Shown here: positions 15,833 through 40,234 of the stretch, in pieces
Layout: every line of letters begins with the position of its first letter
Position numbering within the stretch: position 1 is the stretch's first letter
Source: a virus
Lineage: Duplodnaviria > Caudoviricetes
Direction: 5' to 3' (one strand)
IMG/VR virus record: IMGVR_UViG_2597489885_000001
Coordinates: 6,131 to 70,130 of that record
Length of the DNA: 64,000 bases
Position numbers and translations under genes: made by a program
The notes under the pieces: model-generated
The model's input: only the letters and a program-made list of their open reading frames with translations
Told to the model about the DNA's origin: nothing
Databases searched by the model: none

Positions 15833-15835
15833 GGC

Positions 15836-21174: not shown

Positions 21175-21176
21175 CG

Positions 21177-21515
21177 GTGGCTATCGAGACATTCACTTGG
21201 GAGCCTGATGACGAGGCCAGTGGCGAAAGCACGCTGAAGACCCGGAAGTCGCAATTCGGCGACAACTACGTCCAGGTGGTGGGCGACGGAATTAACGCAG
21301 AGACCGACACCTGGACGATGTCATTTGGTGGTGTTGCTGAGGAAGTGCAGCCCATTGTCGACTTCATCCGCGCCCACCGCGGCTACCGCTCCTTCCTGTG
21401 GACGCCACCCGGCGGTGAGTTGGGCCTGTATCGCTGCGAAACAATTGGGCAGCAGCGCCGCCCCGGCGGCATCGTTGTTATTAATCTGACCTTCGAGAGG
21501 GCGTATCACCCATGA
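21177..21515 (+). CDS. Minor tail protein (lambda M-like)
   Basis: FGDNYVQ...DGIN...F...H.GY.SFLWTPP. Confidence 0.9.
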   Translation: MAIETFTWEPDDEASGESTLKTRKSQFGDNYVQVVGDGINAETDTWTMSFGGVAEEVQPIVDFIRAHRGYRSFLWTPPGGELGLYRCETIGQQRRPGGIVVINLTFERAYHP

Positions 21516-22261
21516 GCCTAGTTTCACAGATCCAGAAGCTGGAGCCGGGCGCCGAGGTGCTGCTGTTCGAGCTGGATGGCTCGGACTTCGGCGCCGATGT
21601 GCTGCGGTTCCACGGCCACGCCATCCCGCATACGCCCGAGGAGCTGCTGGCGGCGGGGCCAAACGCCGACCAACTGCCTGCCAAGTCGATCTGGTGGCAG
21701 GGTAATGAATACGGTGCTTGGCCGTTGCAGGTGGATGGCATCGAGGCGAACTCGGACGGTACTGCTGTGCGCCCGACGCTGTCGGTCGGCAATGTCAATG
21801 GTCGCATCACTGCCTTGTGCCTCGCCTTCGATGACCTGCTCGAGTTCAAGTTGACCATCCGTAACACGCTCGGCCAGTTCCTGGACGCGGCCAACTTCCC
21901 AGGCGGCAACCCTGAGGCCGACCCGACCCAAGAGAGCATCGAGGTCTGGTACATCGACCAGAAGGTGTCGGAGAACGGCCAGACGGTGACCTGGGAGCTG
22001 GCTAGCCCCGGCGACGTAGGTGGCGAGACCATCGGCCGGCAGATGACCACGTTGTGTCACTGGGCCATGACCAATGGCTACCGCGGCCCCAACTGCGGGT
22101 ACACAGGACCGTACCGCGACAAGGACGGCAACCTCACCGACAACCCAGAACTGGACGAATGCGACGGCTGTATGGGAACCGGGTGCGTGCCGCGCTTCGG
22201 TGTAGGCAACCCGCTGCCGTTCGGCGGCTTCCCCGCCGTATCTCTTATTGCCCGGAGCTGA
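21512..22261 (+). CDS. Minor tail protein (lambda L-like)
   Basis: LFELDG...RPTLSV.N...CHW...YRGPNCGY...C..C...C.PRFG. Confidence 0.9.
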   Translation: MSLVSQIQKLEPGAEVLLFELDGSDFGADVLRFHGHAIPHTPEELLAAGPNADQLPAKSIWWQGNEYGAWPLQVDGIEANSDGTAVRPTLSVGNVNGRITALCLAFDDLLEFKLTIRNTLGQFLDAANFPGGNPEADPTQESIEVWYIDQKVSENGQTVTWELASPGDVGGETIGRQMTTLCHWAMTNGYRGPNCGYTGPYRDKDGNLTDNPELDECDGCMGTGCVPRFGVGNPLPFGGFPAVSLIARS

Positions 22262-22263
22262 TC

Positions 22264-23019
22264 ATGCGCAAACACATCCTCGCCGCCGTGCAAGAGCACG
22301 CTGCGGCGGAATACCCGCGCGAGTGCTGCGGGCTGCTGCTGGCGGTGGACCGCAAGCAGATCTACTACCCGTGCACCAACGTGGCCACTGAGCCAACCGA
22401 GGAATTCCGCATCGCGCCTGAGCAGTACGCTGAAGCGGAAGACCTGGGCGAGGTGATCGGCATCGTGCATTCGCACCCGGACGCTACCAGCCGGCCGTCG
22501 CCCCGTGACTTGGCAATGTGTGAGGCCACGGCGCTTCCCTGGCACATCCTGAGCTGGCCCGAGGGGGATCTCAGGGCGATCACGCCAACTGGTGCCACGC
22601 CGCTACTGGGCCGGCCATTCGTGCATGGCGCCTGGGACTGCTGGCAGGTCTGCGCCGACTGGTACAAGCGCGAGTGGGGGGTGGAGTTTGAAGCCTTCCA
22701 GCGTGCTGATGGCTGGTGGGAAGACCCGGCCGGGCCGAGCCTCTATGAGCAGGCCTATGAAGCGGCGGGATTCGTTCAGGTCGACCAGCCGCGGCGTGGC
22801 GACATGATCGTCATGTCCGTGGGCCGCACCGCGCACCCGAACCATGCAGGGATCTACCTCGGTGCCGATCCGCAGCTGCCCGGGGAGTCCGCCGAGGTTT
22901 TTGGCCCTGGTCCTTTCCTGCTGCACCACCTGTACGGCCGGCCAAGCGAAATCATCGTTTTCGGCGGACCGTGGCTCCACCGAACGCGCCTGGTGCTGCG
23001 TCATCGCGAGGCTCGGTGA
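22264..23019 (+). CDS. Tail assembly protein (lambda K-like, JAB + NlpC/P60)
   Basis: PRECCG...HSHPD...DCW...HAGIY. Confidence 0.9.
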   Translation: MRKHILAAVQEHAAAEYPRECCGLLLAVDRKQIYYPCTNVATEPTEEFRIAPEQYAEAEDLGEVIGIVHSHPDATSRPSPRDLAMCEATALPWHILSWPEGDLRAITPTGATPLLGRPFVHGAWDCWQVCADWYKREWGVEFEAFQRADGWWEDPAGPSLYEQAYEAAGFVQVDQPRRGDMIVMSVGRTAHPNHAGIYLGADPQLPGESAEVFGPGPFLLHHLYGRPSEIIVFGGPWLHRTRLVLRHREAR

Positions 23020-23052
23020 TATCGTTGGCTCCTTTCCACAGGAGTGACCGGC

Positions 23053-23397
23053 ATGAGATTTTTCGTAGGGGCGTTGGCGGTGGCGATGTTGGCGGGGTGT
23101 GTCTCGCCAAGTGACCTTAAGAGCAACGCCCCGACTACGACGGCTACAACCAAGAAATCCCCAAGAGATTATGCGGTTTGTGTTTTCCCGAAATGGCAGG
23201 ACGCTCGCTCTGAAGCGGTTATGTCAGAAACTGAGAACGGGTATCGGCTTGTCATTGGCGCGATGCAGATGACTGATGAATTGCTTGAGGTGAAGCAAGC
23301 CGCTAGTGGCAGCTCGGTGGTCTTTTATCAGCGTGTTGCCTGGATGCCCGGAGTCGGGCGAACTGCTATCGAGAAAGCAGTGAAATCCTGTCTCTAG
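23053..23397 (+). CDS. Lipoprotein moron inserted between K and I
   Basis: Lipobox LAGC; own RBS and downstream terminator; more AT-rich by eye. Confidence 0.8.
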   Translation: MRFFVGALAVAMLAGCVSPSDLKSNAPTTTATTKKSPRDYAVCVFPKWQDARSEAVMSETENGYRLVIGAMQMTDELLEVKQAASGSSVVFYQRVAWMPGVGRTAIEKAVKSCL

Positions 23398-23416
23398 TTG
23401 CTCAAATTGAATACAG

Positions 23417-23438
23417 CCGCCACTTGGCGGCTTTTTAT
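23417..23438 (+). terminator. Intrinsic terminator
   Basis: CCGCC-actt-GGCGGCTTTTT. Confidence 0.7.
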
Positions 23439-23454
23439 TGTCTGGAGGAAAGTC

Positions 23455-24048
23455 ATGTCCACAGCAGTCCATTACTCACCAATGACAACCATTAAGCTGT
23501 CCAGTCCTTTATCCAGGCGGCTCGGGAGGCTTCATCGTCGCTTTCTGGATAGCGGGAGTGTGAGGGAGGTTTTTGCCGCCCTAAGAGCCACGCTTCCCGG
23601 ATTTGCCGAAGAGGTCAGGCGACTAGACCAGCTCGGTATGCGATTTGCCATTTTTCGGAACGGCAAAAATGTTGGCGAGAATGACTTTGACCGAAACGGC
23701 GTCAACGAAGTGCGAATTGTTCCTATCGTCGCCGGTAGTAAGCGTGCCGGACTCCTTCAAACGATCATTGGAGCCGTAATTTTTGTTGCTTCATCTTTTG
23801 TTCCTGGCATGCAAGGCTGGGGGCATTCGCTTGGCGCATCTTTGGCGTTGGGAGGAGTAATTCAGATGCTCAGCCCCCAGGCAAAGGGGCTGTCCATGAG
23901 CGGAGCGCCGGAGAACATGCCGTCATACGCTTTCGGGAGCGCAAAGAACACAACCGCCAGCGGCAACCCCGTCCCGATCTGTATCGGCAAGCGCCGCTGG
24001 GGCGGGGCGATCATCTCCGCATCGATCTACGCTAAAGACAAGGCATAG
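23455..24048 (+). CDS. Tail assembly protein (lambda I-like)
   Basis: IRIVPIVAGSK.AG..QTI.GA...SYAF...G.PVP...G. Confidence 0.9.
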   Translation: MSTAVHYSPMTTIKLSSPLSRRLGRLHRRFLDSGSVREVFAALRATLPGFAEEVRRLDQLGMRFAIFRNGKNVGENDFDRNGVNEVRIVPIVAGSKRAGLLQTIIGAVIFVASSFVPGMQGWGHSLGASLALGGVIQMLSPQAKGLSMSGAPENMPSYAFGSAKNTTASGNPVPICIGKRRWGGAIISASIYAKDKA

Positions 24049-24108
24049 CACCCAGCACGAAATATCACCAACCGCCTCCTGGCGGTTTTTTATTGCCCGG
24101 AGGAAAGT

Positions 24109-27100
24109 ATGGGCGCAGCACTCCTGCCAGATGTAAACGGCGCCAAGGGTGGCGAGAAGAAGCCCAAGGCTCCCTACGAGGCCCCCGACAGCCTGCGGTC
24201 TACCAACATCGCCAAGATCCTGCTGGCAGTTGGCGAGGGCGAGTTTGACGGCACGCCGACCGACCGTGATATCTACCTCGACAACACACCGATCAAGGAC
24301 GCGAGCGGGAACATCAACTTCCCTGGCGTGAAGTGGGAGTGGCGCCCTGGATCGATCGAACAGGACTACATCCAGGGCATCCCTGCGATCGAGAACGAGA
24401 CGACGGTAAACGTCGAGCTACGGAGCGACAACCCCTTCACCCGAACCCTGAGCAATACCCAGCTATCCAGATTTCGCGTGCGCTTTTCCTGGCCGCGGCT
24501 GGTCAGCCAAGACAGTAGCGGCAACACCAATGGCTACCGGATCGAGTACGCCATCGACGTTTCTACCGACGGCGGGGCGTTTGTAGAGTCCCTTCGTAGC
24601 GCTGTGGACGGCAAGACCACCAACGGCTATCAGCGCTCGGATCCCGTAAGCCTTCCGCCGGCCACATCCGGCTGGGCTTTCCGTGTTCGCCGCATCACGC
24701 CAAACGCCAACAGCGGCACTATTGCCGACACGATGACCATCGCCGGTTACACCGAGATCATCGACCAGAAGCTGCGCTACCCGAACACCGCGCTGCTGTA
24801 CATCGAGTTCGATGCCGAGCAGTTCCAGAACATTCCGGCCGTGACTGTGGACTGCAATGCGCAGCGCTGGCCTGTGCCGAGCAACTACGACCCGGTGACC
24901 CGCACCTACACTGGCGTGTGGGACGGTACGTTCAAGCAGGCCTGGACCAACAATCCGGTATGGGCAACCTACGGCTTGTGCGTTAACGATCGGTTCGGTC
25001 TGGGCAAACGCATCCAGCCCTGGATGGTCGACAAGTGGGAGATGTATCGCATCTCCCAGTACTGCGACCAGCAGGTACCAAACGGCGTGGGCGGCATGGA
25101 GCCGCGCTATCTGTGCGACCTGAACCTGCAGGGTAAGGCCGAGGCCTGGACGCTGCTGCGCGACCTCTCGGCGATCTACCGGGGGATGGTCTATTGGGCA
25201 CAGGGCTCGCTGTACATGCAGGCCGACATGCCGCGCGCGCAGGACATTGACTATGTCTTCACTCGGGCCAACGTCATTGACGGCGATTTCGTTTACGGCG
25301 GCGCCGGCCGCGACACGCACTACAGCCGCGCGCTGGTGAGCTACGACAACCCGGCTAACAACTACGATACCGACGTGGTCCCGGTTACAGACATAGCGCT
25401 ACAGCGCCGGTACCGGGATCGCCCCATCGAGATCTCGGCCATTGGCTGCACGCGAGCCAGTGAAGCCCAGCGCCGCGGTAAGTGGGCGCTGCTGAGCAAC
25501 AGCCAGGACCGCACCGTCTCGTTCAAAACTGGCATGGAGGGGGCGAATGTGCTGCCGGGCTTCGTCATCCCCGTGGCTGACGAACTGGTGGCGGGCAGGC
25601 CGAACGGCGGTCGCATCTCGGCCGCAGCTGGCCGGGTGATTACTCTTGACCGGGACACGCCAATCAAGGCTGGTGATCGCCTGATCATCAACCTGCCCAA
25701 CGGCACCGCCCAGGGCAGGACCGTGCAGTCGGTCAGCGGCCGCGCCGTGACTGTGACCACCACCTACGCCCTGCAGCCCGAGCCTGAACTGCAGTGGGCG
25801 ATCGACTACGAAGACCTGGCCATCCAGCTGTTCCGCGTCCTAAAGCGCGTGCGCACGACCGAGGGCGAGTACGAGTTCACCGCCTTGGAGTTCAACCCGA
25901 GCAAGTTCGCCGCGATCGACACCGGCGCCAAGCTTGAGGAGCGGCCAATCAGCGTCATCCCGGTGACTACCGTGCCGCCGCCGGCGAGCGTAACTCTGAC
26001 CTCCGGCTACGCCGTTGACCAGGGCCTGGCGGTCAGCACCATGACCATTGCATGGCCAGCGGTGGAGGGGGCAGTGGCGTATGACGTTGAGTGGCGCAAG
26101 GACAGCGGCAACTGGATCCGCCTGCAGCGCACCGGTACAGCCTCGGTCGATGTTGTTGGCATCTACGCTGGCGCCTACCTGGCGCGGGTGCGGGCGGTGA
26201 GCGCCTTCGATATCTCGTCGATCTGGAAGGCGTCCAACCTGACCCAGCTCAACGGCAAGGAAGGCCTGCCGCCGTCGGTGTCGTTCCTGACACCGACGAG
26301 CCTTGTCTACGGCATCCGCCTGGATTGGGGCTTTCCCGCGGGCGCCGAGGACACCCAGCGCACCGAGATCTGGTACAGCAAGACCACGTCACTTGCTGAC
26401 GCGATCAAGCTGGGCGACTTCGCCTATCCGCAGGCCCGGCACGAAATGCAGGGCATCCTGGCGGGTGCCTCGTTCTTCTTCTGGGCTCGCCTGGTCGACC
26501 GCACCGGCAACGTCGGCCCGTGGTACCCGACCGGGATTGGTGTCAACGGCCAGGCCAGTTCTGACCAGTCAGAATACGAGGAGTACTTCGCCGGCCAGAT
26601 CGGCGAATCTGCCCTCGGCCAGCACCTGGGCGAGCGAATCAACCTGATCGACGGCCCGGCCGACCTTCCTGGGTCGGTCAACAACCGCATCCAAGTGGTT
26701 TCGGGTGAAGTGTCAGCGATTTCGGAAAAGGTCGACGGCGTGTTTGCCCAGGTGAACCCGCCGATGGCCGGTTCCACCGAAGATCTGGCCGGCTCGACGG
26801 AAAGCTTCGTTGGTGTCTGGTCGGTGCAGTCGGCGGTGATCGAGGGCGACGTGGCCATCGGCAAGCGCGTAGATACCGTCCAAGTCCAGATGGGCCAGAA
26901 TACCGCTGCAATCCAGGAGGTGAGCCAGGCCCAGGTGGACCTGAACGGTAAGGCCTCGACCATGTGGTCGGTGAAGATGCAGATCGATGCTGCAGGGCGT
27001 TACGTGTCCGCGGGCATCGGGCTCGGCATTGAAAACCAGAACGGGGTATTCCAAAGCCAGTTCCTGGTGAGTGCCGATCGCTTCGCCGTTGTGAATGGCA

Positions 27101-27387
27101 TGGGCGGTGGTGCGCTTGCTGTGCCGTTTGTTGTTCAGGACGGCCAGGTCTTCATCAACCAGGCGTTTATCAACCAGGCCTTTATCAAGGAGCTGGTGCT
27201 CGGTATGACGCTCAGGTCAGCAGCACTCAACAGCGAAGGCTTGCCGTTGCTGGAAATCAACATTCCAGCAGGGACGTTGACGCTGCGCGGCCAGTCGGCG
27301 GAAGGCTCTACGTTGCTGAACAACAACGGCATCTTCGTTTACGACCTGAACCATACAGAGCGTGCTGCCCTGGGGAGGCTTTCGTAA
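24109..27387 (+). CDS. Tail tip / host-specificity protein (lambda J-like)
   Basis: 1092 aa; EGE..G, W.NNP.W, FN3-like middle, DUF1983-like MWSVKM...SQFLV.ADRF. Confidence 0.95.
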   Translation: MGAALLPDVNGAKGGEKKPKAPYEAPDSLRSTNIAKILLAVGEGEFDGTPTDRDIYLDNTPIKDASGNINFPGVKWEWRPGSIEQDYIQGIPAIENETTVNVELRSDNPFTRTLSNTQLSRFRVRFSWPRLVSQDSSGNTNGYRIEYAIDVSTDGGAFVESLRSAVDGKTTNGYQRSDPVSLPPATSGWAFRVRRITPNANSGTIADTMTIAGYTEIIDQKLRYPNTALLYIEFDAEQFQNIPAVTVDCNAQRWPVPSNYDPVTRTYTGVWDGTFKQAWTNNPVWATYGLCVNDRFGLGKRIQPWMVDKWEMYRISQYCDQQVPNGVGGMEPRYLCDLNLQGKAEAWTLLRDLSAIYRGMVYWAQGSLYMQADMPRAQDIDYVFTRANVIDGDFVYGGAGRDTHYSRALVSYDNPANNYDTDVVPVTDIALQRRYRDRPIEISAIGCTRASEAQRRGKWALLSNSQDRTVSFKTGMEGANVLPGFVIPVADELVAGRPNGGRISAAAGRVITLDRDTPIKAGDRLIINLPNGTAQGRTVQSVSGRAVTVTTTYALQPEPELQWAIDYEDLAIQLFRVLKRVRTTEGEYEFTALEFNPSKFAAIDTGAKLEERPISVIPVTTVPPPASVTLTSGYAVDQGLAVSTMTIAWPAVEGAVAYDVEWRKDSGNWIRLQRTGTASVDVVGIYAGAYLARVRAVSAFDISSIWKASNLTQLNGKEGLPPSVSFLTPTSLVYGIRLDWGFPAGAEDTQRTEIWYSKTTSLADAIKLGDFAYPQARHEMQGILAGASFFFWARLVDRTGNVGPWYPTGIGVNGQASSDQSEYEEYFAGQIGESALGQHLGERINLIDGPADLPGSVNNRIQVVSGEVSAISEKVDGVFAQVNPPMAGSTEDLAGSTESFVGVWSVQSAVIEGDVAIGKRVDTVQVQMGQNTAAIQEVSQAQVDLNGKASTMWSVKMQIDAAGRYVSAGIGLGIENQNGVFQSQFLVSADRFAVVNGMGGGALAVPFVVQDGQVFINQAFINQAFIKELVLGMTLRSAALNSEGLPLLEINIPAGTLTLRGQSAEGSTLLNNNGIFVYDLNHTERAALGRLS

Positions 27388-27683
27388 TGGCGTTTTATGG
27401 AGCCAGAACAAGGAATGCCGCCGGCGTTGAAACGCTCAACACGTCGACCATGGGTATTCGCTCGATCGTGACTGTGAAGGTCACGGTCCCGCCGATCACT
27501 AGCGACTTCACCAGCTTCATCAATATGCCGGAGATCACTGCGACTTCGTTCGTTTGCGTCACGCTTCAGGACGCCTCGAACAGCTCCTCGGCGCTCCCTG
27601 CTGTGTTCTGGTCTACCGGCCAGCTCAGGGTTCGCCGCGGCGCTGGCATCGCCTTGAACGTTTTCATCCTGACTTATCAATAA
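27387..27683 (+). CDS. Tail-tip accessory protein
   Basis: Coupled to J (TAATG); beta-rich 98 aa. Confidence 0.65.
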   Translation: MAFYGARTRNAAGVETLNTSTMGIRSIVTVKVTVPPITSDFTSFINMPEITATSFVCVTLQDASNSSSALPAVFWSTGQLRVRRGAGIALNVFILTYQ

Positions 27684-27692
27684 GGGGGAGGC

Positions 27693-28418
27693 ATGGACTA
27701 CGGATTCAGGTCGCGCAACGGTCTGAACTTCTTTCAGATTGACAGCGTGAACAGGGTTCTCGGGGTCGCTGCCAGTGGCAGCTACGTGATCGGCAAGCCG
27801 CCTGGCGCCCCGCTCACAATCACTTCAGCAACCATCACTTATCCGGCGGCGATCACCACAGCCGATCCTCCCATGGTGTTCTTAAACCCGACGAATCAGG
27901 GCATGTATCACACCCTGGAGAACCTCGGTAGCTCAGGAAACTGGACCGGCTTTCGTTTTCAGCTGCAGCTGATGTCGCCTTTCAATAGCTCAGACTGCAG
28001 TGGTAAGTGGCTGGTGGCGACGTTCCGTTCAGTGGGACCTCCCAGTGAATACGACATCAGGCTGAGGTCCGCGACTGGAGAGACGATATTTGTAGGCGCG
28101 GATAACCTGCTTTCAATGAGAGGGTTTCCGGTCAATGAAGGGTGGTCGCTCGATAACCGAGGCGAGCAGGTGGGCGCGGTCTACTGGTCAGGCTGCCAGA
28201 TGCCGTGGACTGGCGACTATGCGGATTACTTCCTGGCGTCGACCCTGATTGGCGGGAAAATCTATAACGGCAACTCGACGCTGGAAACACCGTGCGGGTT
28301 TCACGCCGGCATCCGCTCCACTCTAAACGGTTACGTCGGGGCGCTGGTCAGCTCTGAGGGTGGCACGGCTAAGAACGGGCGAACCACTTTTGCCGTAAGA
28401 CCGATGCGACCCCTGTAA
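27693..28418 (+). CDS. Tail-tip accessory / putative receptor-binding protein
   Basis: MDYGFRSRN...FQID; position after J. Confidence 0.6.
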   Translation: MDYGFRSRNGLNFFQIDSVNRVLGVAASGSYVIGKPPGAPLTITSATITYPAAITTADPPMVFLNPTNQGMYHTLENLGSSGNWTGFRFQLQLMSPFNSSDCSGKWLVATFRSVGPPSEYDIRLRSATGETIFVGADNLLSMRGFPVNEGWSLDNRGEQVGAVYWSGCQMPWTGDYADYFLASTLIGGKIYNGNSTLETPCGFHAGIRSTLNGYVGALVSSEGGTAKNGRTTFAVRPMRPL

Positions 28419-28474
28419 TCAAATCCCTACTACCAAAGCCCTCCTTTTGAGGGCTTCTTTTTTGGAGCAGCCGA

Positions 28475-28981
28475 ATGGCTAAGCAGGTAATTCAGCTCGG
28501 TACAGCGCCCACCGGTGTGGGCGGCGACACTCCGCGCAGTGCCAACATTAAAATCAACTCCAACTTTGACGAGCTGTACGCGGCTGATGCGGTGAACTAC
28601 AAGAAGGGCAACATTGTTGGCCCTGTCTCGCAAAGCGGCGGGGTTCCCACCGGCGCGATCATAGAGTCTGGAAATGGGGTGAACGGGCGGTACGTGCGCT
28701 GGGCTGACGGGACCCAGCACTGCTGGATCACCATGAACTACTACACAGCGATCGATGCCCCGCAGATGGGTGTGTATGTGTCTGGATGGATTACCTGGAG
28801 TTTCCAGGCTCCCTTCATCGCCCGGCCGAATGTGCTCATCACTGCTCGCGACGACACGTTCCTTTTCGGCTCAAGCGTAAGCGGGACCACTGCGGGGGAG
28901 GTCGTGAGGTTTGCATCGGCAACCCCGCTTGCGGCGGGCGCAAAGCTTGCGACTCTTTTTGCCGTTGGGAGGTGGTTCTGA
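28475..28981 (+). CDS. Short tail-fibre-like protein
   Basis: G.GGDTPRSAN.KIN.NF.ELY N-terminus; NGRYVRWADGTQ.CW C-domain. Confidence 0.75.
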   Translation: MAKQVIQLGTAPTGVGGDTPRSANIKINSNFDELYAADAVNYKKGNIVGPVSQSGGVPTGAIIESGNGVNGRYVRWADGTQHCWITMNYYTAIDAPQMGVYVSGWITWSFQAPFIARPNVLITARDDTFLFGSSVSGTTAGEVVRFASATPLAAGAKLATLFAVGRWF

Positions 28982-29691
28982 TGATTATCAAACTCTGTCC
29001 ACAGCGCGGCGATGAGCCGTACAACGTGGTGAAGGATGGCAACACGCTGACGATCAACGGGGCTCTTTTCGATTTCTCGAGGATCAAGCCGGGCGACACG
29101 CTGCCCGGTGAAGCTGTTGACTCAATGTGGTTCAAGCCCGGCCCGGTCGAGATGATCGACAGTGAGCTGGTGGTCACACTGCGTTTCCCATTCCCTGCGA
29201 ACTTCAGCCATGAGCAGATGTTTCCGCGAGACCTGATTGCTGTACCGGACGGGAAGGTTGCATTCCCTGAGCCGCTGCCAGGTGGCGAGCCCGTGGCTGT
29301 AGATGACACGTCGACACCATCAGTTGGGCAGATTGATTGGTCCCAGCTGGTCACCGCAGAAATGAAGGCAGCGGAGGCCCTGGCGGAGCGTCTGGCTGAA
29401 TCTAAGGCGCAGCTGGCTGCAAGAAACGCCACGGCCGCGGCGCAGATCGACCGCATCACTGATCGGATCGAAACCCTTGGCTACGGTATCGAGGCCGGCG
29501 AAGCCACGCCAGAGGACGCCGCCGAGCAGGCCGCCCTGGCTGTGAACCTGAAAACCTGGAAGGCCTACAAGTTTGCCCTGGGCAAAGTCACCGCCCAGAC
29601 GACCTGGCCGGCCGCGCCGGTCTGGCCCGTAGAGCCACCTATCCCTGAAATCATCGCCGCCCCGATGTTTGCCGACGAAGAAATGGCCTGA
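28981..29691 (+). CDS. Tail fibre assembly chaperone
   Basis: W..Y...L.KV..Q..WP..P.WP.EP C-terminal motif. Confidence 0.75.
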   Translation: MIIKLCPQRGDEPYNVVKDGNTLTINGALFDFSRIKPGDTLPGEAVDSMWFKPGPVEMIDSELVVTLRFPFPANFSHEQMFPRDLIAVPDGKVAFPEPLPGGEPVAVDDTSTPSVGQIDWSQLVTAEMKAAEALAERLAESKAQLAARNATAAAQIDRITDRIETLGYGIEAGEATPEDAAEQAALAVNLKTWKAYKFALGKVTAQTTWPAAPVWPVEPPIPEIIAAPMFADEEMA

Positions 29692-29749
29692 CCCATACCG
29701 AACGAAAGCGCCCGCCTTGAGCGGGCTTTTTATTGCCTGGAGAAAAGTG

Positions 29750-30175
29750 ATGACTGCAACCGAGAAAGACCGAGACATCCTCGCACGCACGCTGTGGGGT
29801 GAGGCCCGCGGCGAGGGTTTGGCCGGCCAGATCGCCGTGGCCTGGACGATCCGCAACCGCGTGAACGACGGGAAGACCAAGTCCTGGTGGGGTGAGGGTT
29901 ATGTCGGCGTGTGCCAGGCGCCGTACCAGTTCAGCTGCTGGAACAAGAACGACCCGAACTTTCCGTTCCTCAGCGGCGCCAAGCCGATTCCGGCCGGCCA
30001 GTTCGCCCAGGCCCTGCGTGCTGCTGATCAGGTGATCGCCGGCGCAGTGCCTGACCCCACCGACGGCGCTACGCATTACTACGCGACCACCATGGCCAAG
30101 GCCCCGGCCTGGGCGGCGAAGGCCAAGCAAACGGTGCGCATCGGGCAGCACGTCTTCTTCAAGGACGTGCCGTGA
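29750..30175 (+). CDS. Endolysin (SleB/Hydrolase_2 cell-wall hydrolase)
   Basis: LARTLWGEARGEG...VAW.I.NRV...YQFSCWN...DPT.GATHYY. Confidence 0.9.
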   Translation: MTATEKDRDILARTLWGEARGEGLAGQIAVAWTIRNRVNDGKTKSWWGEGYVGVCQAPYQFSCWNKNDPNFPFLSGAKPIPAGQFAQALRAADQVIAGAVPDPTDGATHYYATTMAKAPAWAAKAKQTVRIGQHVFFKDVP

Positions 30176-30546
30176 TGACGCCGGCGCAGAAACTGATCGG
30201 CTGGCTGGTGCTGGCCGGCCTGCTGATTGCCTCCGGCGCCGGGCTGGGGGCCTGGCTTGCTGCTGGTCACTACCGGCCGTTGCTCGACGCCGCCCAGGAT
30301 GACCTGGCCACCACCAAGGCCGGCCGGGCCAGCCTGGAAGCGCTGGTGGTGGAGCAGGGCAGGAAGCTCGGCGATCTGGTGCTGGCCGGTCAGGAGCGGG
30401 AGCAGCGCGCCGCCCAGGCCCAGGCCGACGCCCGGGAGCTAGCCAAGACCGACTATGCCGCGGCAAACCGTCTGCTGCAGGAGCGAACCGGTGGCGACCA
30501 GTGCGCGGCCGCCACGGCTATTATCGATCAGGAGCTTGGATTATGA
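30172..30546 (+). CDS. i-spanin (Rz-like)
   Basis: N-terminal TM plus coiled coil, after the endolysin. Confidence 0.8.
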   Translation: MMTPAQKLIGWLVLAGLLIASGAGLGAWLAAGHYRPLLDAAQDDLATTKAGRASLEALVVEQGRKLGDLVLAGQEREQRAAQAQADARELAKTDYAAANRLLQERTGGDQCAAATAIIDQELGL

Positions 30547-30800
30547 AGTTGCTGCTGTTGGGGTTTGTGGTGCTGCTGGCGGGATGCGCGGGCCGGGAGG
30601 CGGAGGTGCGCACTGTGCGAGTTGAGGTGCCCGTGCAGGTGCCGTGCCGGACGCAGGAGGTGGCGGTGCCACCTTGGGCAACTGCTGGCCTGAAGAAGGT
30701 CGACAGCCTGGAGCTGAAGGTGCGGGCGCTGCTGGCAGAGCGTCGGCAGCGCATCGCTTACGAGCGCGAGCTGGTTGCTGTAATGGGTGCCTGTAGGTAG
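30543..30800 (+). CDS. o-spanin (Rz1-like lipoprotein)
   Basis: Lipobox LAGC, VEVPVQVPC. Confidence 0.85.
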   Translation: MKLLLLGFVVLLAGCAGREAEVRTVRVEVPVQVPCRTQEVAVPPWATAGLKKVDSLELKVRALLAERRQRIAYERELVAVMGACR

Positions 30801-30809
30801 TTCCAAAAT

Positions 30810-30915
30810 CTGTCTAAAACTAGCTCAACCTATCCCGGTTTTGCTGGCTTAAAACCGCATCAAATGGCATGAGAGTTTTAGACAGGAAAACTCTGAAAGC
30901 CACGTAATACGTGGC
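30810..30915. repeat. Candidate att-arm sites at the prophage right end
   Basis: Perfect 12-bp inverted repeat CTGTCTAAAACT (30810-30821)/AGTTTTAGACAG (30874-30885); palindrome GCCACGTA-A-TACGTGGC (30899-30915). Confidence 0.55.
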
Positions 30916-30922
30916 GTATGCA

Positions 30923-30988
30923 CTACTCAAGCCCATACTGCTGCATCATCGGCGTGTGGGAGGACAGATCGGTGAGCGCTTTATTCAT
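30923..30988 (-). pseudogene. mutS: 5' fragment of mutS interrupted by the prophage (att junction)
   Basis: Minus strand translates MNKALTDLSSHTPMMQQY-GLE*; the first 18 aa match the Pseudomonas MutS N-terminus (HTPMMQQYW); divergent from prtR as in mutS-cinA loci. Confidence 0.9.
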
Positions 30989-31124
30989 CGGGTCGTCAGG
31001 TTGATTCGTTGAAAGGGTGGGCAAAAGCAGAGGGCATGGGCCCGGCTTTTTCGCGATGGGCGCAAGGTTACCATGGGCGGTCCGACCTTCGCAGGGATGA
31101 ACCCGGCTGGATTTCGGGTGTTTT

Positions 31125-31184
31125 ATGCATGAATATGCATTTTAGCATTTGTCATCGGCGAAAATAACCCGCAATATGCGCGTT
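31125..31184 (+). promoter_or_regulatory. Putative prtR promoter (leaderless) and ATGCAT operator pair
   Basis: TTGTCA (31149-54), 17 nt, CAATAT (31172-77), ATG 7 nt later with no SD; ATGCAT at 31125 and 31135. Confidence 0.55.
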
Positions 31185-31910
31185 ATGCAAAAGCGCAACG
31201 TTTCTACCGTCTTAAGAGAGCTGCTCGATCGCGATGGCATTTCCCCCACGGAACTCCATCGGCGTACCGGCGTGCCTCAATCCACCCTTTCGCGGATCCT
31301 CAGCGGCAAGATTGTCGATCCATCGGACAAACACATCTCGCGGATCGCCGAGTACTTCCAGGTGAGCACCGATCAACTGCGCGGGCGCGCGGCAGTCGCC
31401 TCTGCCCGGTCGGCCGATCCGCATTCGGAACTCAAGGACATAAGTCTGTGGGACGACGATACCCCCGTCGATGACGACGAGGTGTCGGTCCCCTTTCTTC
31501 GCGAGGTTGAATTGGCTGCGGGATCAGGAAGATTCGTCATCGAGGAAAGCGAGCGTTCCAGTCTGCGCTTCGGCAAGCGCAGCCTGCGGCACAATGGCGT
31601 GCAGTTCGACCAGGCCAAATGCGTGACGGTACGCGGCAACAGCATGTTGCCGGTGCTGCGCGACGGTGCCACGGTGGGGGTCAATGCCGGCAAATGCGGT
31701 ATCGGCGACATCATCGACGGCGACCTGTATGCCATCAACCACAACGGCCAACTGCGGGTGAAGCAGCTCTATCGCCTGCCTTCCGGCATTCGCCTGCGCA
31801 GCTTCAACCGCGACGAACATCCGGATGAGGACTACAGCTTCCAGGACATGCAGGAAGAGCAGATCGTCATCCTCGGTCACGTCTTCTGGTGGGGCATGTA
31901 CGCCCGCTAA
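31185..31910 (+). CDS. prtR: PrtR-like tailocin repressor (CI/LexA-type, S24 peptidase)
   Basis: HTH (TELHRRTGVPQSTLSRILSG), AAG cleavage site, VRGNSM catalytic Ser, RVKQL Lys; beside mutS. Confidence 0.9.
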   Translation: MQKRNVSTVLRELLDRDGISPTELHRRTGVPQSTLSRILSGKIVDPSDKHISRIAEYFQVSTDQLRGRAAVASARSADPHSELKDISLWDDDTPVDDDEVSVPFLREVELAAGSGRFVIEESERSSLRFGKRSLRHNGVQFDQAKCVTVRGNSMLPVLRDGATVGVNAGKCGIGDIIDGDLYAINHNGQLRVKQLYRLPSGIRLRSFNRDEHPDEDYSFQDMQEEQIVILGHVFWWGMYAR

Positions 31911-33232: not shown

Positions 33233-33334
33233 CTCCCGTTCAGCGGACTTTTCCAGGGTTGAAGACAGCGCCGGTGACTCGGTGCTGTCTTGCCCTCAAT
33301 CCCTGCACTCATCAACGCTCCCAGGAGGCGTGAC

Positions 33335-33682
33335 ATGACAAACGAGCAACAAGCGTTGCTGGACATGCCGATCTGGCTTGTCATCGTCCTCGCCCTGGTG
33401 GGCGGGGTGTCCGGCGAAATGTGGCGCGCCGACAAGGAGGGCGCCCGCGGCTGGTTGTTGCTGCGGCGCCTGGCACTGCGCTCCGGGGCCTGCGTGATCT
33501 GCGGGGTCTCGACCATCATGCTGCTGTACGCCGCCGGCGTATCGATCTGGACCGCTGGCGCCTTCGGCTGCCTGACCGCCATGGCGGGCGCTGATGTAGC
33601 CATCGGGCTCTACGAGCGCTGGGCGGCCAAGCGGCTGGGTGTGTGCGAAGTGCCGCCCAAGGATCCCCGCTCGGACTCCTGA
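33335..33682 (+). CDS. Tailocin holin
   Basis: MTNEQQALLDMPIW...GGVSGEMWRADK, 3 TM segments. Confidence 0.85.
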   Translation: MTNEQQALLDMPIWLVIVLALVGGVSGEMWRADKEGARGWLLLRRLALRSGACVICGVSTIMLLYAAGVSIWTAGAFGCLTAMAGADVAIGLYERWAAKRLGVCEVPPKDPRSDS

Positions 33683-33848
33683 ATAACCACCAAAACAGAT
33701 CGTCGATTCATTGAGTCGACGCTGCCGTGATACCCGCCTGACGCAGGACGCGTACTCGTATTGAACGAGCTCAATCGGCCCTCCCGGCAGGGAGGCGCCA
33801 GGTACGGCCCAGCGCCGTCCATCCATCCGTTTCAAACAGAGGCAAACC

Positions 33849-34613
33849 ATGATCCCAATCGACTACAACAGCTATCGCACCCTTGCGCCCTACAACAAGC
33901 GGGTGCGGTTCCTGGTGCTGCATTACACGGCCCTGAACTTCGAGGCATCGGTCAAGGCCCTGACCACCGGCGCGGCGAGCACCCATTACCTGATTCCGGC
34001 GGTGCAGGATCCGACCTATCAAGCCGCGGGTTTCCAGGAACAACGAATCTTCAACCTGGTGGCCGAAGCAGACCGCGCCTGGCATGCCGGTGTCAGTGAC
34101 TGGGCCGGTCGCAGCGGCTTGAACGACACCTCCATCGGCATCGAGATCGTCAACGAAGCCACCGACGTCAATGGTGTCTTCACCTTCCCGGATTACGAAC
34201 GCTCCCAGGTCGAGGCGCTCAAGCAGCTGGCCCTGAATATTCTCCAGCGTTATCCGGACATGTCGCCGAAAAACGTGGTGGGCCACTCCGATATCGCGGT
34301 GGGCCGCAAATCCGATCCGGGCCCCAAGCTGCCCTGGAAAGAACTCTACAAGGCCGGTATCGGCGCCTGGTACGACGAGCCGACCAAGAAGAAATACGTC
34401 CAGCAATTCCGCACTGCCGGGCTGCCCGAGCGTGCCGAAGTGCTCAAGGCCTTCGCCACCTACGGCTATGGCGTGCCGGCCCAGGCAACGGATGACTTCT
34501 TCCAGTCGCTGGTGCGGGCGTTCCAGATGCACTTCAGGCCGAAGAACTACACCGGGAAACTGGATGTGGAAACCTGCGCGATTCTTTATGCGCTGAACGA
34601 GAAGTACGCCTGA
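33849..34613 (+). CDS. N-acetylmuramoyl-L-alanine amidase (Amidase_2/AmpD-like)
   Basis: LVLHYT...STHY...RAWHAG.S...NDTSIGIEIVN...VGHSDIA..RK.DPGP; C-terminal AFQMHFRP PG-binding; no signal peptide. Confidence 0.9.
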   Translation: MIPIDYNSYRTLAPYNKRVRFLVLHYTALNFEASVKALTTGAASTHYLIPAVQDPTYQAAGFQEQRIFNLVAEADRAWHAGVSDWAGRSGLNDTSIGIEIVNEATDVNGVFTFPDYERSQVEALKQLALNILQRYPDMSPKNVVGHSDIAVGRKSDPGPKLPWKELYKAGIGAWYDEPTKKKYVQQFRTAGLPERAEVLKAFATYGYGVPAQATDDFFQSLVRAFQMHFRPKNYTGKLDVETCAILYALNEKYA

Positions 34614-34834
34614 TTCGGCGAAATCAGGGCTGAGGTCTCCATCGAAGGTGATGCCGGACCTCAGCAAAGTCTCGTGAGTCATTCGTTGCATCACCCAGCT
34701 CTTCGCGATGTCGCGCACCGATCTGGCGAGCCAGAGCCCTGCTCAAACCGACGTTCACCGCTCCTCCAGCTCGCACCACATCCGCAGCACCCCAGCGCAA
34801 TCTCAACCCTGATATCCGAACAGGAAGCCCCCCT

Positions 34835-35359
34835 ATGCCCACAGTCATCGACAAGCCGTCGCAGCTGTTTTTTGCCATTGCCGAGACCCTGCGAGGGGCG
34901 GGCCTTGGTCTCAAGGTTGGCAGTCACCAGAACTTCGATGGTCTGCTCGACCAGGCCTGGGTGCTGATGGCGATCGAGCGCGATGCCCCGGGCATGCGCA
35001 GCCAGGAAGGGCGTATCGCCCATGTCCTGACGATCTCGCTGCAAGCCGTGGCGGCTGTGGGGAGCGAGCGTTCCGGGTTCGAGGCCTGCGATCTGGCGAG
35101 CGTGCTGAAGGATCTGGCTACGGATAACCGTTGGGGCCTCCCGGCAGCGCAGTGCGACCTGCCCATGAACCTCGAGGGCCTGCCCTCGACCCTGATTCGC
35201 GGCGAGCAGCAATACGCCGCCTGGACGCTGTCGTTCACTCAGACGCTGTACCTCGGCCAGCCATTGCTGGACGACCCGACCGGCATACCGAAGTTCGCCC
35301 GCACCTGGGAAGTCTCGAATATCGATGACCCCGACCAATACCAAGCACTTGAGGGCTGA
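34835..35359 (+). CDS. Tailocin hypothetical protein (possible tail completion protein)
   Basis: First ORF of the P2-like block. Confidence 0.65.
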   Translation: MPTVIDKPSQLFFAIAETLRGAGLGLKVGSHQNFDGLLDQAWVLMAIERDAPGMRSQEGRIAHVLTISLQAVAAVGSERSGFEACDLASVLKDLATDNRWGLPAAQCDLPMNLEGLPSTLIRGEQQYAAWTLSFTQTLYLGQPLLDDPTGIPKFARTWEVSNIDDPDQYQALEG

Positions 35360-35362
35360 GCC

Positions 35363-35971
35363 ATGTTTGACGAGCTGCTGCGCATGCAGCTGGGCCCGAT
35401 CATCGAGCGACTGGCCGAAATGGAAACCGAACTCGATGACTTGCACCGGCGCGCGGAAAACCATTGCCGTATTGGCGTGTGCCAGTCGGTCGATGCGGCC
35501 AGCAACACCTGCCAGGTCAGCCACGGAGAGCTGCTGACGCCGGCAATCAGGTTCTTCAACCCCAGCGCCGGCGCGCAAAGCGAATCGCGCATTCCTTCCG
35601 TGGGCGAGCAGTGCCTGCTGCTCAACTACGGTGGCGGCGACGGCGGGGCCCAGTCGGTGGCGCTGTTCGGCCTCAACTGCGACCGCTTTCCACCGGTGTC
35701 GACCCTGGCCGCGCTGACCCGCCGCCAATACGCCGATGGCACCCAAAGCAGTTATGACGATGCCGGCCATGTCTTGAACTGGAGCAACGGCCCGACCGCG
35801 CTCACTGCCTCCCGCGAGGCGGTCGAGTTGAGCATCGGTCCTGCCCGGCTGGCGATGAGGCCCGAGGCGATCGAGCTGCGGCTGGGTGCGGTGGGCATCT
35901 TGCTCGACAGTGCCGGCATTCACTTCAGCGGCCCCTTGGTGGAGCACCAGGGCCGCGTTATCAGTCCTTGA
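35363..35971 (+). CDS. Baseplate spike (P2 V-like)
   Basis: RIGVC..VD...PSVGEQ.LL...G...YADG. Confidence 0.85.
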   Translation: MFDELLRMQLGPIIERLAEMETELDDLHRRAENHCRIGVCQSVDAASNTCQVSHGELLTPAIRFFNPSAGAQSESRIPSVGEQCLLLNYGGGDGGAQSVALFGLNCDRFPPVSTLAALTRRQYADGTQSSYDDAGHVLNWSNGPTALTASREAVELSIGPARLAMRPEAIELRLGAVGILLDSAGIHFSGPLVEHQGRVISP

Positions 35972-35984
35972 TAAGAGGCTTCCC

Positions 35985-36317
35985 ATGATTGGAGTCGATA
36001 GAAACACCGGTGCCGTGGTCGATGACTGGCTGCAGTTCGTGCAGCGCGCGACCCGTGCCCTGACCACGCCGTTGGGCACCCGGCAGAAGCGCCCTTTATA
36101 CGGCTCGTTGATTCCCGACCTGCTGGGCCAGAACCTCGGCGACGACCTGCTGATCCTCGCCCAGAGCCATGCCGCGCAGGCGTTCTACAACGAGCAGAAC
36201 GGCATCGGCGATTTCGAGCCGCAGGTCATAGTCGCCAGCCGGCGCGGCGCCGGGCTGCTGTTGCGTTTCGCCGGCACCTGGAAAAACCGCCAACAGACGT
36301 TCGAGGTCGTGACATGA
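35985..36317 (+). CDS. Baseplate wedge (P2 W-like)
   Basis: MIGVDRNTG...LTTPLGTR..RP.YGS.IPDL. Confidence 0.85.
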   Translation: MIGVDRNTGAVVDDWLQFVQRATRALTTPLGTRQKRPLYGSLIPDLLGQNLGDDLLILAQSHAAQAFYNEQNGIGDFEPQVIVASRRGAGLLLRFAGTWKNRQQTFEVVT

Positions 36318-37309
36318 GCATGCTGATACCCGGTGAACACCAGTTGGCCGAGCCGGCCATTGTCACAGTCGATGAATTCGAGACGCTGCTTGCCGAGTTC
36401 AAGACCTTCGTCATCGATTACGTGGCCCAGCGTTCCCCCGCCCATGCGCAGAAACTGCAGGCCAGCCTGGCCAACGAAAGCGAGCTGCTGACCCTGGCGC
36501 TGGAAGCCTTCTGCCTGCGCCTGCAGACCCATGAGCGCAAGTACAACGCCCGCATCAAGCAGATGCTGGCCTGGTGGGCCACCGGCAGCAATCTCGATGC
36601 GCGCCTGGCGGACATGGGCCTGGAGCGGCAGTTGCTTGACCCGGGCGATCCGGCGGCCTTTCCACCGGTCCCCGCGGTCTATGAAAGCGACCAAGATGCC
36701 CGCCTGCGCTACTACCTGGCGCCCCATGCGCCGGCCGCCGGTTCGCGCATGCAGTATCGCCGCGAGGTGTTCACCCTCGGCGAGCGGCCGACGGTGAAAG
36801 TGGACTCCACCGATGCGGGCGTGGTGACCGTCACCTACACCTTCGATCCGGACGGCTTCGCCGCTCAGGTCAAGGATGGCAACGGCCGCCGTACCGCACC
36901 GGGAGAAGTGCAGGTCACCGTGCTCTCGCGGGAAGGCGACGGCACGCCGTCCGAGGACCTGCTCGAAGGCGTGCGCCGACACTTTGCCCGACCGGACGTG
37001 AAACCGGAGACGGATCGGGTGACGGTGCAGGCGGCACAGATCAAACCCTACAAGATCCGCGTGGTGGCCAAGATCAACCCGGGCCCCGATTCCGGACTGA
37101 CCCAGGTCGCCACACAGCGGCAACTACAGGCCTACGCGGACAGCTGTCATCGCCTGGAAGGGCGGGTGGATCCGAGCTGGATCGATTACACGCTGCATGC
37201 CGCGGGTGCGGTGCAGCTGGAAATTCTCGAACCCTTGGCGCCGATCGTCACGACGGCTTTCCAGGCGCCGTATTGCACGGATGTCGAGGTGGAGGTGCTC
37301 ACGCTATGA
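36314..37309 (+). CDS. Baseplate J-like protein
   Basis: ATGSNLD...ESD..R.R...PG.V.VTVLS. Confidence 0.9.
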   Translation: MSMLIPGEHQLAEPAIVTVDEFETLLAEFKTFVIDYVAQRSPAHAQKLQASLANESELLTLALEAFCLRLQTHERKYNARIKQMLAWWATGSNLDARLADMGLERQLLDPGDPAAFPPVPAVYESDQDARLRYYLAPHAPAAGSRMQYRREVFTLGERPTVKVDSTDAGVVTVTYTFDPDGFAAQVKDGNGRRTAPGEVQVTVLSREGDGTPSEDLLEGVRRHFARPDVKPETDRVTVQAAQIKPYKIRVVAKINPGPDSGLTQVATQRQLQAYADSCHRLEGRVDPSWIDYTLHAAGAVQLEILEPLAPIVTTAFQAPYCTDVEVEVLTL

Positions 37310-37941
37310 AGGATGAAGCCGTTCACCCGAGTCTCCTGCCGGTCAACAGCTCGCCTCTGGAAAGAGCGCTCGACCTGGGTTTTGCCCGGTTGCTCGAACG
37401 CATCGCGCCGCCGTTTCCGGAGCTGATGAGCCCCGCCGAAACACCGGTTGAATTCTTGCCTTATCTCGCGGCTGATCGGGGTGTCGGCGAGTGGCGCTCC
37501 GAAGCGCCCGAGGCCGAAAAACGTTTGACGGTCGAGCTGGCCTGGCCCACCGCGCGTCAGGCCGGCACACGAAAGGCGCTGGAAAATGCCGCCAAGGGTT
37601 TGCAATTGATGCCCGAGGTTCGCGCCTGGTATGAGCAGACCCCACCGGGGGCGCCTTACAGCTTTTCGGTCAGGGCCTTCACCGAGCGGCCTTACAGCGA
37701 AGAGATCGACGCGCGCCTCGATCGGCGCCTGGCGGATGCCAAAAGCGAACGCGACACCTTGACTGTATCCGTGGGCCTGAGCGCATTCGGTTCCCACTCC
37801 ATCGGGGCGGCGACCGTCTGCGGCGAGTTGACCACCATCTACCCGATCGTCGTCGAGGGCCTTGAAGCCTCGGGCCAGGCCTTCATGGCCGCCGGACTGT
37901 ACAGCGTCGAAACATCCACTATTTATCCTCAGGGGTCCTAA
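37306..37941 (+). CDS. Tail protein I (P2 I-like)
   Basis: LLP.NSS.LE...FLPYLA...GTR.AL. Confidence 0.9.
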   Translation: MKDEAVHPSLLPVNSSPLERALDLGFARLLERIAPPFPELMSPAETPVEFLPYLAADRGVGEWRSEAPEAEKRLTVELAWPTARQAGTRKALENAAKGLQLMPEVRAWYEQTPPGAPYSFSVRAFTERPYSEEIDARLDRRLADAKSERDTLTVSVGLSAFGSHSIGAATVCGELTTIYPIVVEGLEASGQAFMAAGLYSVETSTIYPQGS

Positions 37942-39483
37942 ATGGCCGACTATTACACCCTGCTCACGAATGCGGGGATCGCCTACGAAACCGCCTGCAA
38001 GGCAGCAGGCGTACCGATCAAGCTGTCGCAGATTTCCGTCGGTGACGGAGGTGGCGCGGTTTACAACCCGGCTGCGACCGACACTGCCCTCAAGCGCGAA
38101 GTCTGGCGCGGTCCGCTCAATGCCCTGTTCCAGGACGAGAAAAACCCCAGCTGGCTGCTGGCCGAAGTGACCATCCCACCTGAAGTCGGTGGTTGGTATG
38201 TGCGTGAAGCGGGGCTGTGGACCGACACCGGTATTCTCTACGCCATCGTCAAGTATCCGGAGTCGTTCAAGCCGGTGCTGGCAACTTCGGGATCGGGGAA
38301 AGAGTTCTATATCCGCTCGATTTTCGAGACCAGCAATGCTTCGCTGGTGACCTTGCTGATCGACGATACGGTGGTCAAGGCGACGCGGGCTTGGGTGGCG
38401 GGTTATGTCGCCGATGAATTGGCCAGGCTCGACAGTAAACAATCGGTGCGGGTCGCTACCACCACCAATATCGTTTTAAGTGGTGCTCAAGCGATCGATG
38501 GCGTAGCTGTGGTTGCCGGGGACCGTGTGCTGGTCAAGGCGCAATCGCTGGCGAAGGACAATGGCATTTATGTTGTTGCCAACGGTGCCTGGACCCGTTC
38601 GAAGGACGCTGATGCAAGCGTCAAGGTTACGTCTGGGCTGATCGTTTCCGTCGAGGAAGGAGCCTTGTTGGCCGACACTATCTGGCAACTGGTTACAGAC
38701 GGCTCCATCGTTCTCGGCACTACGGCCCTGACCTTCCAGAACATAACCAAAGGATTTGCGCCGCTCAACTCACCGGTGCTGACCAACCCAACGGCGAATA
38801 CCGCGCCGCAGTTCGACAATTCAAAGGCACTCGCCACTACGGAATTCGTTGCGCGTGCGCTCGGGAGCTTCAGAGGCGGTACCGGCATTTCAGCAAGCCG
38901 GACATTGACTGGCGATGATCTTGGTAAGCGCCTGGAGCTGGCCGCCGGTGTCACGGTGGCAATGCCAGCAACTTCGTCTGTACCTGATGGGGCTGCGATG
39001 TTGATATCGGCGGGGCCGCAGTCCACAAGCTCGCGGGTGACTGTCGCCGAGGGGGATCAACTGGCAATGAACAACTTGGCTGTGACAGTTCCCTACACGC
39101 TGTCGCCTGGTGGGGACTTCATTGCGATACGAGAGGCGAATGTGTGGCGCTGCCACTCCGGCAGTGAAACCCTACGGACATCCCCATTATTCGGTGCCTC
39201 ACTGTTCGCAACGGGCTATCAGAAGCTACCAAGCGGCGACGTCGATCAATGGGGCGTGTATGTTGGGATTGCTTCGGGGGCTGAGGTGACTATTACATTA
39301 CCCGTCGCTCTTTCTGCCGTTCCAAACAATATTCAACTGACGTTTGCTAACTTCTCCAATGGCGAAGCCGTCGGAAGCTCTCCTGTATTGCAAGCAAGGG
39401 GTTCAACTTTAGGAACTTTTACTGTGCGTAACTTGTTCGGGGCGACGGCGTCGTTCTTCTGGAGAGTGAGGGGGAGAGCATGA
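37942..39483 (+). CDS. Tail fibre of tailocin 1
   Basis: YYTLLTNAG...GGWYVREAG N-domain; GYQKLPSG..QWG C-domain. Confidence 0.9.
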   Translation: MADYYTLLTNAGIAYETACKAAGVPIKLSQISVGDGGGAVYNPAATDTALKREVWRGPLNALFQDEKNPSWLLAEVTIPPEVGGWYVREAGLWTDTGILYAIVKYPESFKPVLATSGSGKEFYIRSIFETSNASLVTLLIDDTVVKATRAWVAGYVADELARLDSKQSVRVATTTNIVLSGAQAIDGVAVVAGDRVLVKAQSLAKDNGIYVVANGAWTRSKDADASVKVTSGLIVSVEEGALLADTIWQLVTDGSIVLGTTALTFQNITKGFAPLNSPVLTNPTANTAPQFDNSKALATTEFVARALGSFRGGTGISASRTLTGDDLGKRLELAAGVTVAMPATSSVPDGAAMLISAGPQSTSSRVTVAEGDQLAMNNLAVTVPYTLSPGGDFIAIREANVWRCHSGSETLRTSPLFGASLFATGYQKLPSGDVDQWGVYVGIASGAEVTITLPVALSAVPNNIQLTFANFSNGEAVGSSPVLQARGSTLGTFTVRNLFGATASFFWRVRGRA

Positions 39484-39911
39484 CTGTTTTTTTCAGCCCG
39501 GCCACCGGGTTCTTTTACGATGATCAAGTGTGTGAGTTCATCCCTAGCGACGCAATTGGATTTAGCGCTGAAGAGCGTGATGCACTGCTATTCGCCCAAG
39601 GAAATGGGAAATACGTCGGCGTTATGCCGGATGGCCGCCCTGGCCTTATCGACTCACCACCGCAGTCACCTGAACAACTCGCGGAAGTTGAACGCTATTG
39701 GCGCTCTCGTCAACTTTCTACAACTGACGGAGTTGTGACACGTCACCGCGATGAATTGGAGGAGGGTATTGCAACCACTCTTTCAACAGATCAATACACG
39801 GAGCTTCAAGTCTATCGTCGAGCGCTCCGCAACTGGCCGGAGGCTGGTGAGTTCCCGTTGAGTGAACATCGTCCCCCCGCACCGCTGTGGCTGGCTGACC
39901 AGCTCCAATAA
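39480..39911 (+). CDS. Tail fibre assembly chaperone
   Basis: FFS..T.FFY...RHRDE...YRRALRNWP...RP.AP. Confidence 0.85.
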   Translation: MTVFFSPATGFFYDDQVCEFIPSDAIGFSAEERDALLFAQGNGKYVGVMPDGRPGLIDSPPQSPEQLAEVERYWRSRQLSTTDGVVTRHRDELEEGIATTLSTDQYTELQVYRRALRNWPEAGEFPLSEHRPPAPLWLADQLQ

Positions 39912-39937
39912 ACGCCCCGCACCGACGGGGCGTTTTC
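39910..39937 (+). terminator. Intrinsic terminator
   Basis: AAACGCCCCG-caccga-CGGGGCGTTTT. Confidence 0.75.
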
Positions 39938-40010
39938 TTATCCGCAAAGCAATACACAACACCCAACAGCCTCACTCACCTGGGGCTTTTTCGTATCTGG
40001 AGAGACTGAA

Positions 40011-40232
40011 ATGGCTAACCGCCAAACCTACACCGTCCTCGTGCCATTCCCCACCGGCGGCGGCCACTGGTCGAGCATCGGCCAGCAACTGGAACTGCTC
40101 GATGTCGAGGCCAGTGCCCTGCGTGCCGCCGGCCGCCTGGAACTGACCAGCGTCCTTGAAACGCGCCAACAGGCCGAACCGGCCACCCCATCCACCGCGG
40201 CCAAAAAGGCCGCTGCCAAGAAGGCTGAATAA
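40011..40232 (+). CDS. Small hypothetical protein before the sheath
   Basis: GGAG RBS; K/A-rich tail. Confidence 0.65.
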   Translation: MANRQTYTVLVPFPTGGGHWSSIGQQLELLDVEASALRAAGRLELTSVLETRQQAEPATPSTAAKKAAAKKAE

Positions 40233-40234
40233 CC

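Follow-up and report, generated by a model that had tools for sequence, protein, structure and literature searches.

At positions 30923-30988 of the DNA analysed here, a stretch of 64,000 nucleotides from an IMG/VR virus record (hereafter the window), the start of a bacterial mutS gene runs into phage DNA and a stop. This raises the question of whether the phage has turned mutS into a mutator switch by disrupting it, or whether it carries a replacement for the part of the gene that it displaced. A sequence-only reading of the locus had offered both outcomes, in this order. We are confident that a lambdoid temperate phage of 39.3 kb has its attR junction at this site, and that its integration preserves mutS and is not a mutator switch of the knockout type.

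The orphan mutS start at the junction

On the minus strand, 30988-30923 encodes the start codon and 17 further codons of native MutS, ending in HTPMMQQY, followed by Gly-Leu-Glu and a stop. This bears out the sequence-only reading, which had seen 18 native codons continuing into phage DNA. The features recognized at the junction were:

30923..30988, minus strand: orphan open frame of 18 native MutS codons and three codons from the phage, closed by a stop
30936..30949, minus strand: attR copy of the 14-bp recombination core, with an identical 14-mer at attL
30950..30988, minus strand (start codon at 30988-30986): first 13 codons of native mutS, host-derived and now severed from the gene
30989..31148: native mutS upstream region, common to the divergent tailocin repressor gene and conserved in other Pseudomonas species ahead of their intact mutS
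30899..30915, minus strand: phage-borne hairpin with a 7-bp stem and a 3-nt loop, located just past the orphan stop, with a T-rich stretch behind it

With the 226 nt at 30923-31148 (minus strand) as query, 72 of 81 Pseudomonas species genomes gave a match, the lowest E-value being 4e-52. In the matching genomes the native start (MNKA[L/V/I]SDLSS...) continued uninterrupted into full-length mutS, and in nearly all of them the match stopped at query position 213. This position corresponds to 30936 in the window, the last base of the 14-bp core. The end of the similarity to native mutS starts at 30936 indicates a true junction, with host DNA to the right and foreign DNA to the left. The core extends over four MutS codons, Met-Met-Gln-Gln, and takes in the first two bases of the following Tyr codon, so that the junction lies inside the HTPMMQQ(Y) motif. 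It occurred a single time in the window, versus 0.01 occurrences expected.

The conserved upstream region probably contains the native mutS promoter, which would now drive only the orphan frame. The hairpin, with a fold of -26 kcal/mol over 81 nt (z = -2.6), was partly conserved in related attR arms, and may terminate transcripts from the stranded promoter.

The rebuilt mutS at the far prophage end

The sequence-only reading had placed the remaining part of mutS beyond the left end of the prophage, and there it was found. We reached this end by an identity look-up of a phage protein, which led to the host contig CM001490.1 of Pseudomonas chlororaphis O6 (locus L002 in the coordinates below). 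The contig was identical to the virus record at 6400 of the 6400 bases compared. It carried a second copy of the core (L002 13198-13211), 39,291 bp from the attR copy. A duplicated core at attL had been predicted, but it lay in the host contig, outside both the window and the record. The cores of attL and attR were identical over 14 bp, with mismatches immediately flanking both sides. A second core copy was found neither in the window nor in the 70-kb virus record, and the record also had no MutS_I or other MutS domain and no integrase gene. The missing core and MutS_I domain are explained by the record ending 2.2 kb short of attL.

In the left arm, an excisionase gene (DUF4224, phrog_4764) was followed by a gene for a 325-aa tyrosine integrase (Phage_integrase) and then by mutS. 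The new in-frame start sought at attL was present as a phage-supplied start codon 51 nt after the integrase gene. No obvious Shine-Dalgarno sequence was seen near this start. The gene encoded an intact MutS of 855 aa, with six Pfam domains (MutS_I to MutS_V and the C-terminal domain), and its translation kept the GDFYE mismatch-binding motif and the Walker A motif. Upstream of the core, the DNA at attL was phage-derived and encoded the start codon plus eight host-identical residues (TDLSSHTP). Nine of the 24 bases in these eight mimic codons differed from the host, and every difference was synonymous, a signature of selection for an unchanged protein. Compared with native MutS (859 aa), the lysogen protein missed four N-terminal residues and had no other difference.

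These results bear on a knockout of mutS, which would leave the lysogen without MutS until the prophage excises. Such a reading could draw on the native start in the window, which reaches a stop after 21 codons, and on the absence of MutS_I from the 70-kb virus record. It is contradicted at the sequence level by the full-length 855-aa MutS, which begins at the other prophage end on the same contig, and we consider it hardly credible. The mutator switch by disruption proposed in the sequence-only reading runs into the refuting condition set there, full-length MutS being restored at the level of the reading frame, while the replacement start that it had offered as a second outcome gains support from the attL sequence.

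Excision in silico gave an in-frame native MutS of 859 aa and an attP with a 17-codon mimic ORF. As read from the sequence, both the integrated and the excised states encode full-length MutS. Mobile elements in the HTPMMQQ motif of mutS were described by Chu et al. 2017 (mBio 8:e02045-16, PMC5296598), and in Vibrio splendidus 12B01, the founding case, excision deletes 2 bp and yields a hypermutator. If the O6 phage excised with such a scar, its loss would produce a small mutS deletion and hypermutator descendants. This is very improbable, because attL and attR share the same 14-bp core in the same frame, and any crossover in it would give the in-frame native gene. In addition, excision in Escherichia coli 536, P. 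putida F1 and Burkholderia multivorans CF2 proceeds without a frameshift and keeps mutS in frame (PMC5296598).

In the mechanism that we propose, the tyrosine integrase would act at codons 14-18 of mutS, recombining within the 14-bp core there. The attP, directly after the integrase gene, would imitate the 5' end of mutS with a start codon, eight recoded codons and the core. Integration would orphan the host promoter and the first 13 codons at attR, and would fuse the phage-borne start at attL to the remaining mutS, giving the 855-aa MutS. On excision, recombination within the core would bring back the native gene, in frame.

Gene content of the prophage and its attachment arms

The prophage part of the window comprised:

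1..30935, plus strand: right-hand 30.9 kb of a 39,291-bp lambdoid prophage, recognized by PHROGs and Pfam matches
29669..30800, plus strand: lysis end, with a cell-wall hydrolase (endolysin, 29669-30175) and small ORFs at 30172-30546 and 30501-30800
30876-30884 (plus strand) and 30811-30819 (minus strand): two copies of WWTAGACA on the attR phage arm, with no further match in 64 kb (0.13 expected)

The prophage genes in the window encoded a DnaB helicase, a Q-like antiterminator, the small and large terminase, a portal protein, a protease and a major head protein. They were joined by a 1087-aa tape measure protein, lambda-type tail tip and minor tail proteins, a 1092-aa J protein and tail fibres. 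The last phage ORF (30501-30800) was weakly Rz-like or spanin-like. The left 8.4 kb of the prophage, with the integrase, the excisionase and the CI/Cro region, lay outside the window. The gene set of a lambdoid temperate siphovirus was complete as open frames (immunity, Q, head, tail, lysis, integrase and excisionase), and the CheckV completeness of the virus record was 92%. A complete-looking lambdoid prophage in the HTPMMQQY motif of mutS, as had been claimed from the window, is confirmed.

Two more WWTAGACA copies were found on the integrase-side arm (L002 13121-13128 and 13143-13150). The four copies, two per arm, lay within ~125 nt of the core and were conserved across relatives. They are probably arm-type binding sites of the integrase.

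Several genes stood apart from this set. Three or four minus-strand ORFs (152, 244 and 159/264 aa) at 6656-8936, opposite to the late genes, were flanked by the Q region on one side and the HNH/terminase genes on the other and had no Pfam matches. The single ORF of this group queried against PHROGs (7200-7934) gave no match. The group could be a moron or defence cassette. A 210-aa ORF early in the late region (6023-6655) gave a match to phrog_18217 and weak ones to J-related and tail-fibre families. In the immunity region, outside the window, a gene for a HigB-type toxin and, next to it, a small ORF that may encode the antitoxin were found beside the CI repressor gene (L002 8029-8686, equal to 2261-2957 of the record).

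Relatives with the same layout

Among GTDB species genomes, four had a relative of the integrase, with 61-84% identity: P. fungipugnans, P. parakoreensis, Pseudomonas sp. ANT_H4 and Azotobacter beijerinckii. All four genes were located directly upstream of a full-length mutS frame. The same was true for a fifth relative from the genus sample (genome G014), and the spacer before mutS was conserved in all five. Overall, the mutS frame was intact in 6/6 lysogens examined. The orphan native start was retained in three Pseudomonas lysogens, either 42-55 kb away or on another contig, and the pattern search in the Azotobacter lysogen gave only the attL copy. The Gly-Leu-Glu continuation after the core was also present in three other lysogens and in the free phage phiAH14a.

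Phage phiAH14a (KU708004) is mitomycin C-inducible and packaged (Dziewit and Radlinska 2016, PMC4936722). Its integrase was 82% identical to that of O6, and it shared with the O6 phage the spacer with WWTAGACA repeats, the right-arm elements and a mutS-mimic ORF directly after the integrase gene. Its free genome holds a contiguous attP, consisting of the integrase stop, the spacer, the mutS mimic, the core and the right arm. This speaks indirectly for excision of the O6 phage to a circular form. The two phages differ in that phiAH14a has a genome of 55 kb and other cargo. The phiAH14a paper (PMC4936722) and the P. protegens phage papers make no mention of mutS or att sites.

Variation was also seen at this site. 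In genome G014 (L044 740-800; L049), the orphan start left the mutS sequence already after MMQ, a few bases sooner, which agrees with a published statement that crossover does not always occur at the same point of the motif. Two other Pseudomonas genomes, G006 (L041) and G057 (L042), had a second copy of the mutS start ~41 kb from the first, with no co-oriented integrase directly upstream. Their gene-proximal start, apparently element-supplied, keeps the host-type MNKA/MNKQ. The elements in these two genomes look like a different family at the same site.

Transcription of the rebuilt gene

With the reading frame restored, the effect of the prophage on mutS depends on transcription. The entire left phage arm, including the excisionase and integrase genes, is oriented toward mutS, and no same-strand terminator was predicted between the integrase gene and mutS. 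Read-through transcription into mutS is therefore possible. In the mechanism proposed above, an adequate MutS level would come from this excisionase-integrase read-through or from a phage-side promoter. A promoter consensus scan from the excisionase gene to mutS found none. A second scan, over 450 nt upstream of the rebuilt mutS, found nothing conserved, and had low power, as it misses the native promoter too.

The same arrangement would also suit a switch at the level of expression, in which the frame is intact and the swap of promoters lowers MutS or ties its level to the state of the prophage. For example, mutS would be transcribed only by read-through from the excisionase-integrase region, making the lysogen a mutator, though a mild or conditional one, until excision restored native control. 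The native upstream region is 39.3 kb away from the gene, the co-oriented left arm is separated from mutS by just 51 nt after the integrase gene, with no predicted same-strand terminator, and the spacer yielded no consensus promoter. The last point comes from scans without power. Against such a switch, the intact mutS frame in 6/6 lysogens and the synonymous-only changes of the mimic codons point to selection for a working MutS. Moreover, the integrated state is the non-mutator state in V. splendidus, and P. putida F1 keeps the frame in both states (PMC5296598). We thus regard an expression-level switch as unlikely. We would give equally little credit to the more specific claim that mutS in lysogens is transcribed from the leftward excisionase-integrase transcript or a phage-controlled promoter and that the swap is not neutral. 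If it were true, MutS level and the rates of mutation and recombination would follow the regulatory state of the prophage, for example during SOS induction alongside the tailocin locus. The question of whether the promoter swap affects MutS level had been posed in 2017.

The neighbouring tailocin locus and the record boundaries

To the right of the junction, the window contained:

31149..31910, plus strand: LexA-like repressor (HTH and S24 peptidase), an analogue of PrtR/PtbA and the first gene of the tailocin locus
33290..63482, plus strand: tailocin body, with a holin (33290-33682), an amidase, baseplate J, a tail-collar fibre, a tape-measure-like protein and a GH19 enzyme (62919-63482)

The repressor gene and the orphaned native mutS start point away from each other, with 160 nt between them. 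The tailocin locus reported next door in the sequence-only reading is thus indeed there, as an S24-repressor, holin and tail locus adjoining the prophage. The mutS-cinA region of fluorescent pseudomonads is a known tailocin locus (Mavrodi 2009; Ghequire 2015). In O6, Loper et al. 2012 (Table S13) listed for this region a "prophage 1" of 72.3 kb with an intact integrase. It is the same DNA as here, treated there as a single prophage between mutS and cinA. "Prophage 1" consists of the 39.3-kb phage in mutS and, apart from it, a tailocin locus of ~33 kb with its own repressor and lysis genes.

The 70,130-bp IMG/VR provirus record, made up of the window and 6130 nt to its left, likewise fuses the phage with the adjoining tailocin locus, and it omits the last 2.2 kb of the phage, with the integrase, the excisionase and attL. 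This shows that the record boundaries are wrong at both ends. The main value of our analysis lies in the correct annotation: a mutS start with a stop beside a prophage resembles a mutator genotype and here is not one, and the 72-kb "prophage 1" and the 70-kb IMG/VR record are each really two units.

Comparison with known systems

Chu et al. found hundreds of Beta- and Gammaproteobacteria with elements in the mutS motif, some of them prophages, including ones of ~40 kb, and in V. splendidus 12B01 the element provides a new promoter and start (PMC5296598). The O6 phage resembles this class in being an integrase-bearing element in the same motif, with an orphan host start at its far end and an element-supplied start that holds mutS in frame. 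The class features found in O6 were the integrase next to mutS, the orphan start, the HTPMMQQ junction and the in-frame replacement start. With respect to excision, O6 differs from 12B01, since its 14-bp core predicts scarless excision, and is similar to P. putida F1, for which scarless excision was reported.

P. chlororaphis O6 is itself listed in Table S2 of Chu et al. 2017 (PMC5296598). Its row has no coordinates and no mark for a confirmed orphan start; the coordinates are supplied by the present analysis. As O6 appears in this BLAST-derived table, its integrase may be related to that of 12B01. More than one integrase lineage may target the mutS motif: a BLASTP comparison of the mutS-adjacent ORF of E. 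coli 536 with the O6 integrase showed no similarity. This ORF (L047 18977-19726) encodes a 249-aa DUF4102 protein and is divergent from mutS.

Another excisable phage-like element in a mismatch-repair locus is SpyCIM1, at the mutS-mutL junction of Streptococcus pyogenes. When integrated, it interrupts the expression of the repair operon and acts as a growth-phase mutator switch (PMC13492144). SpyCIM1 blocks repair expression, whereas the O6 phage rebuilds the gene. A disruption like that of SpyCIM1 would abolish the reading frame of the repair gene or its expression in the integrated state, and the frame at attL is intact.

Replacement of a displaced gene segment by attP is known from phage 21 and e14 in the icd gene of E. 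coli, and from many tRNA-targeting integrases. As in O6, the target gene survives integration by means of a phage-borne segment. In those cases the 3' end is replaced, whereas the O6 phage replaces the 5' end, including the promoter and the start codon. The O6 element is a fully resolved example of an already described class, known since 2017.
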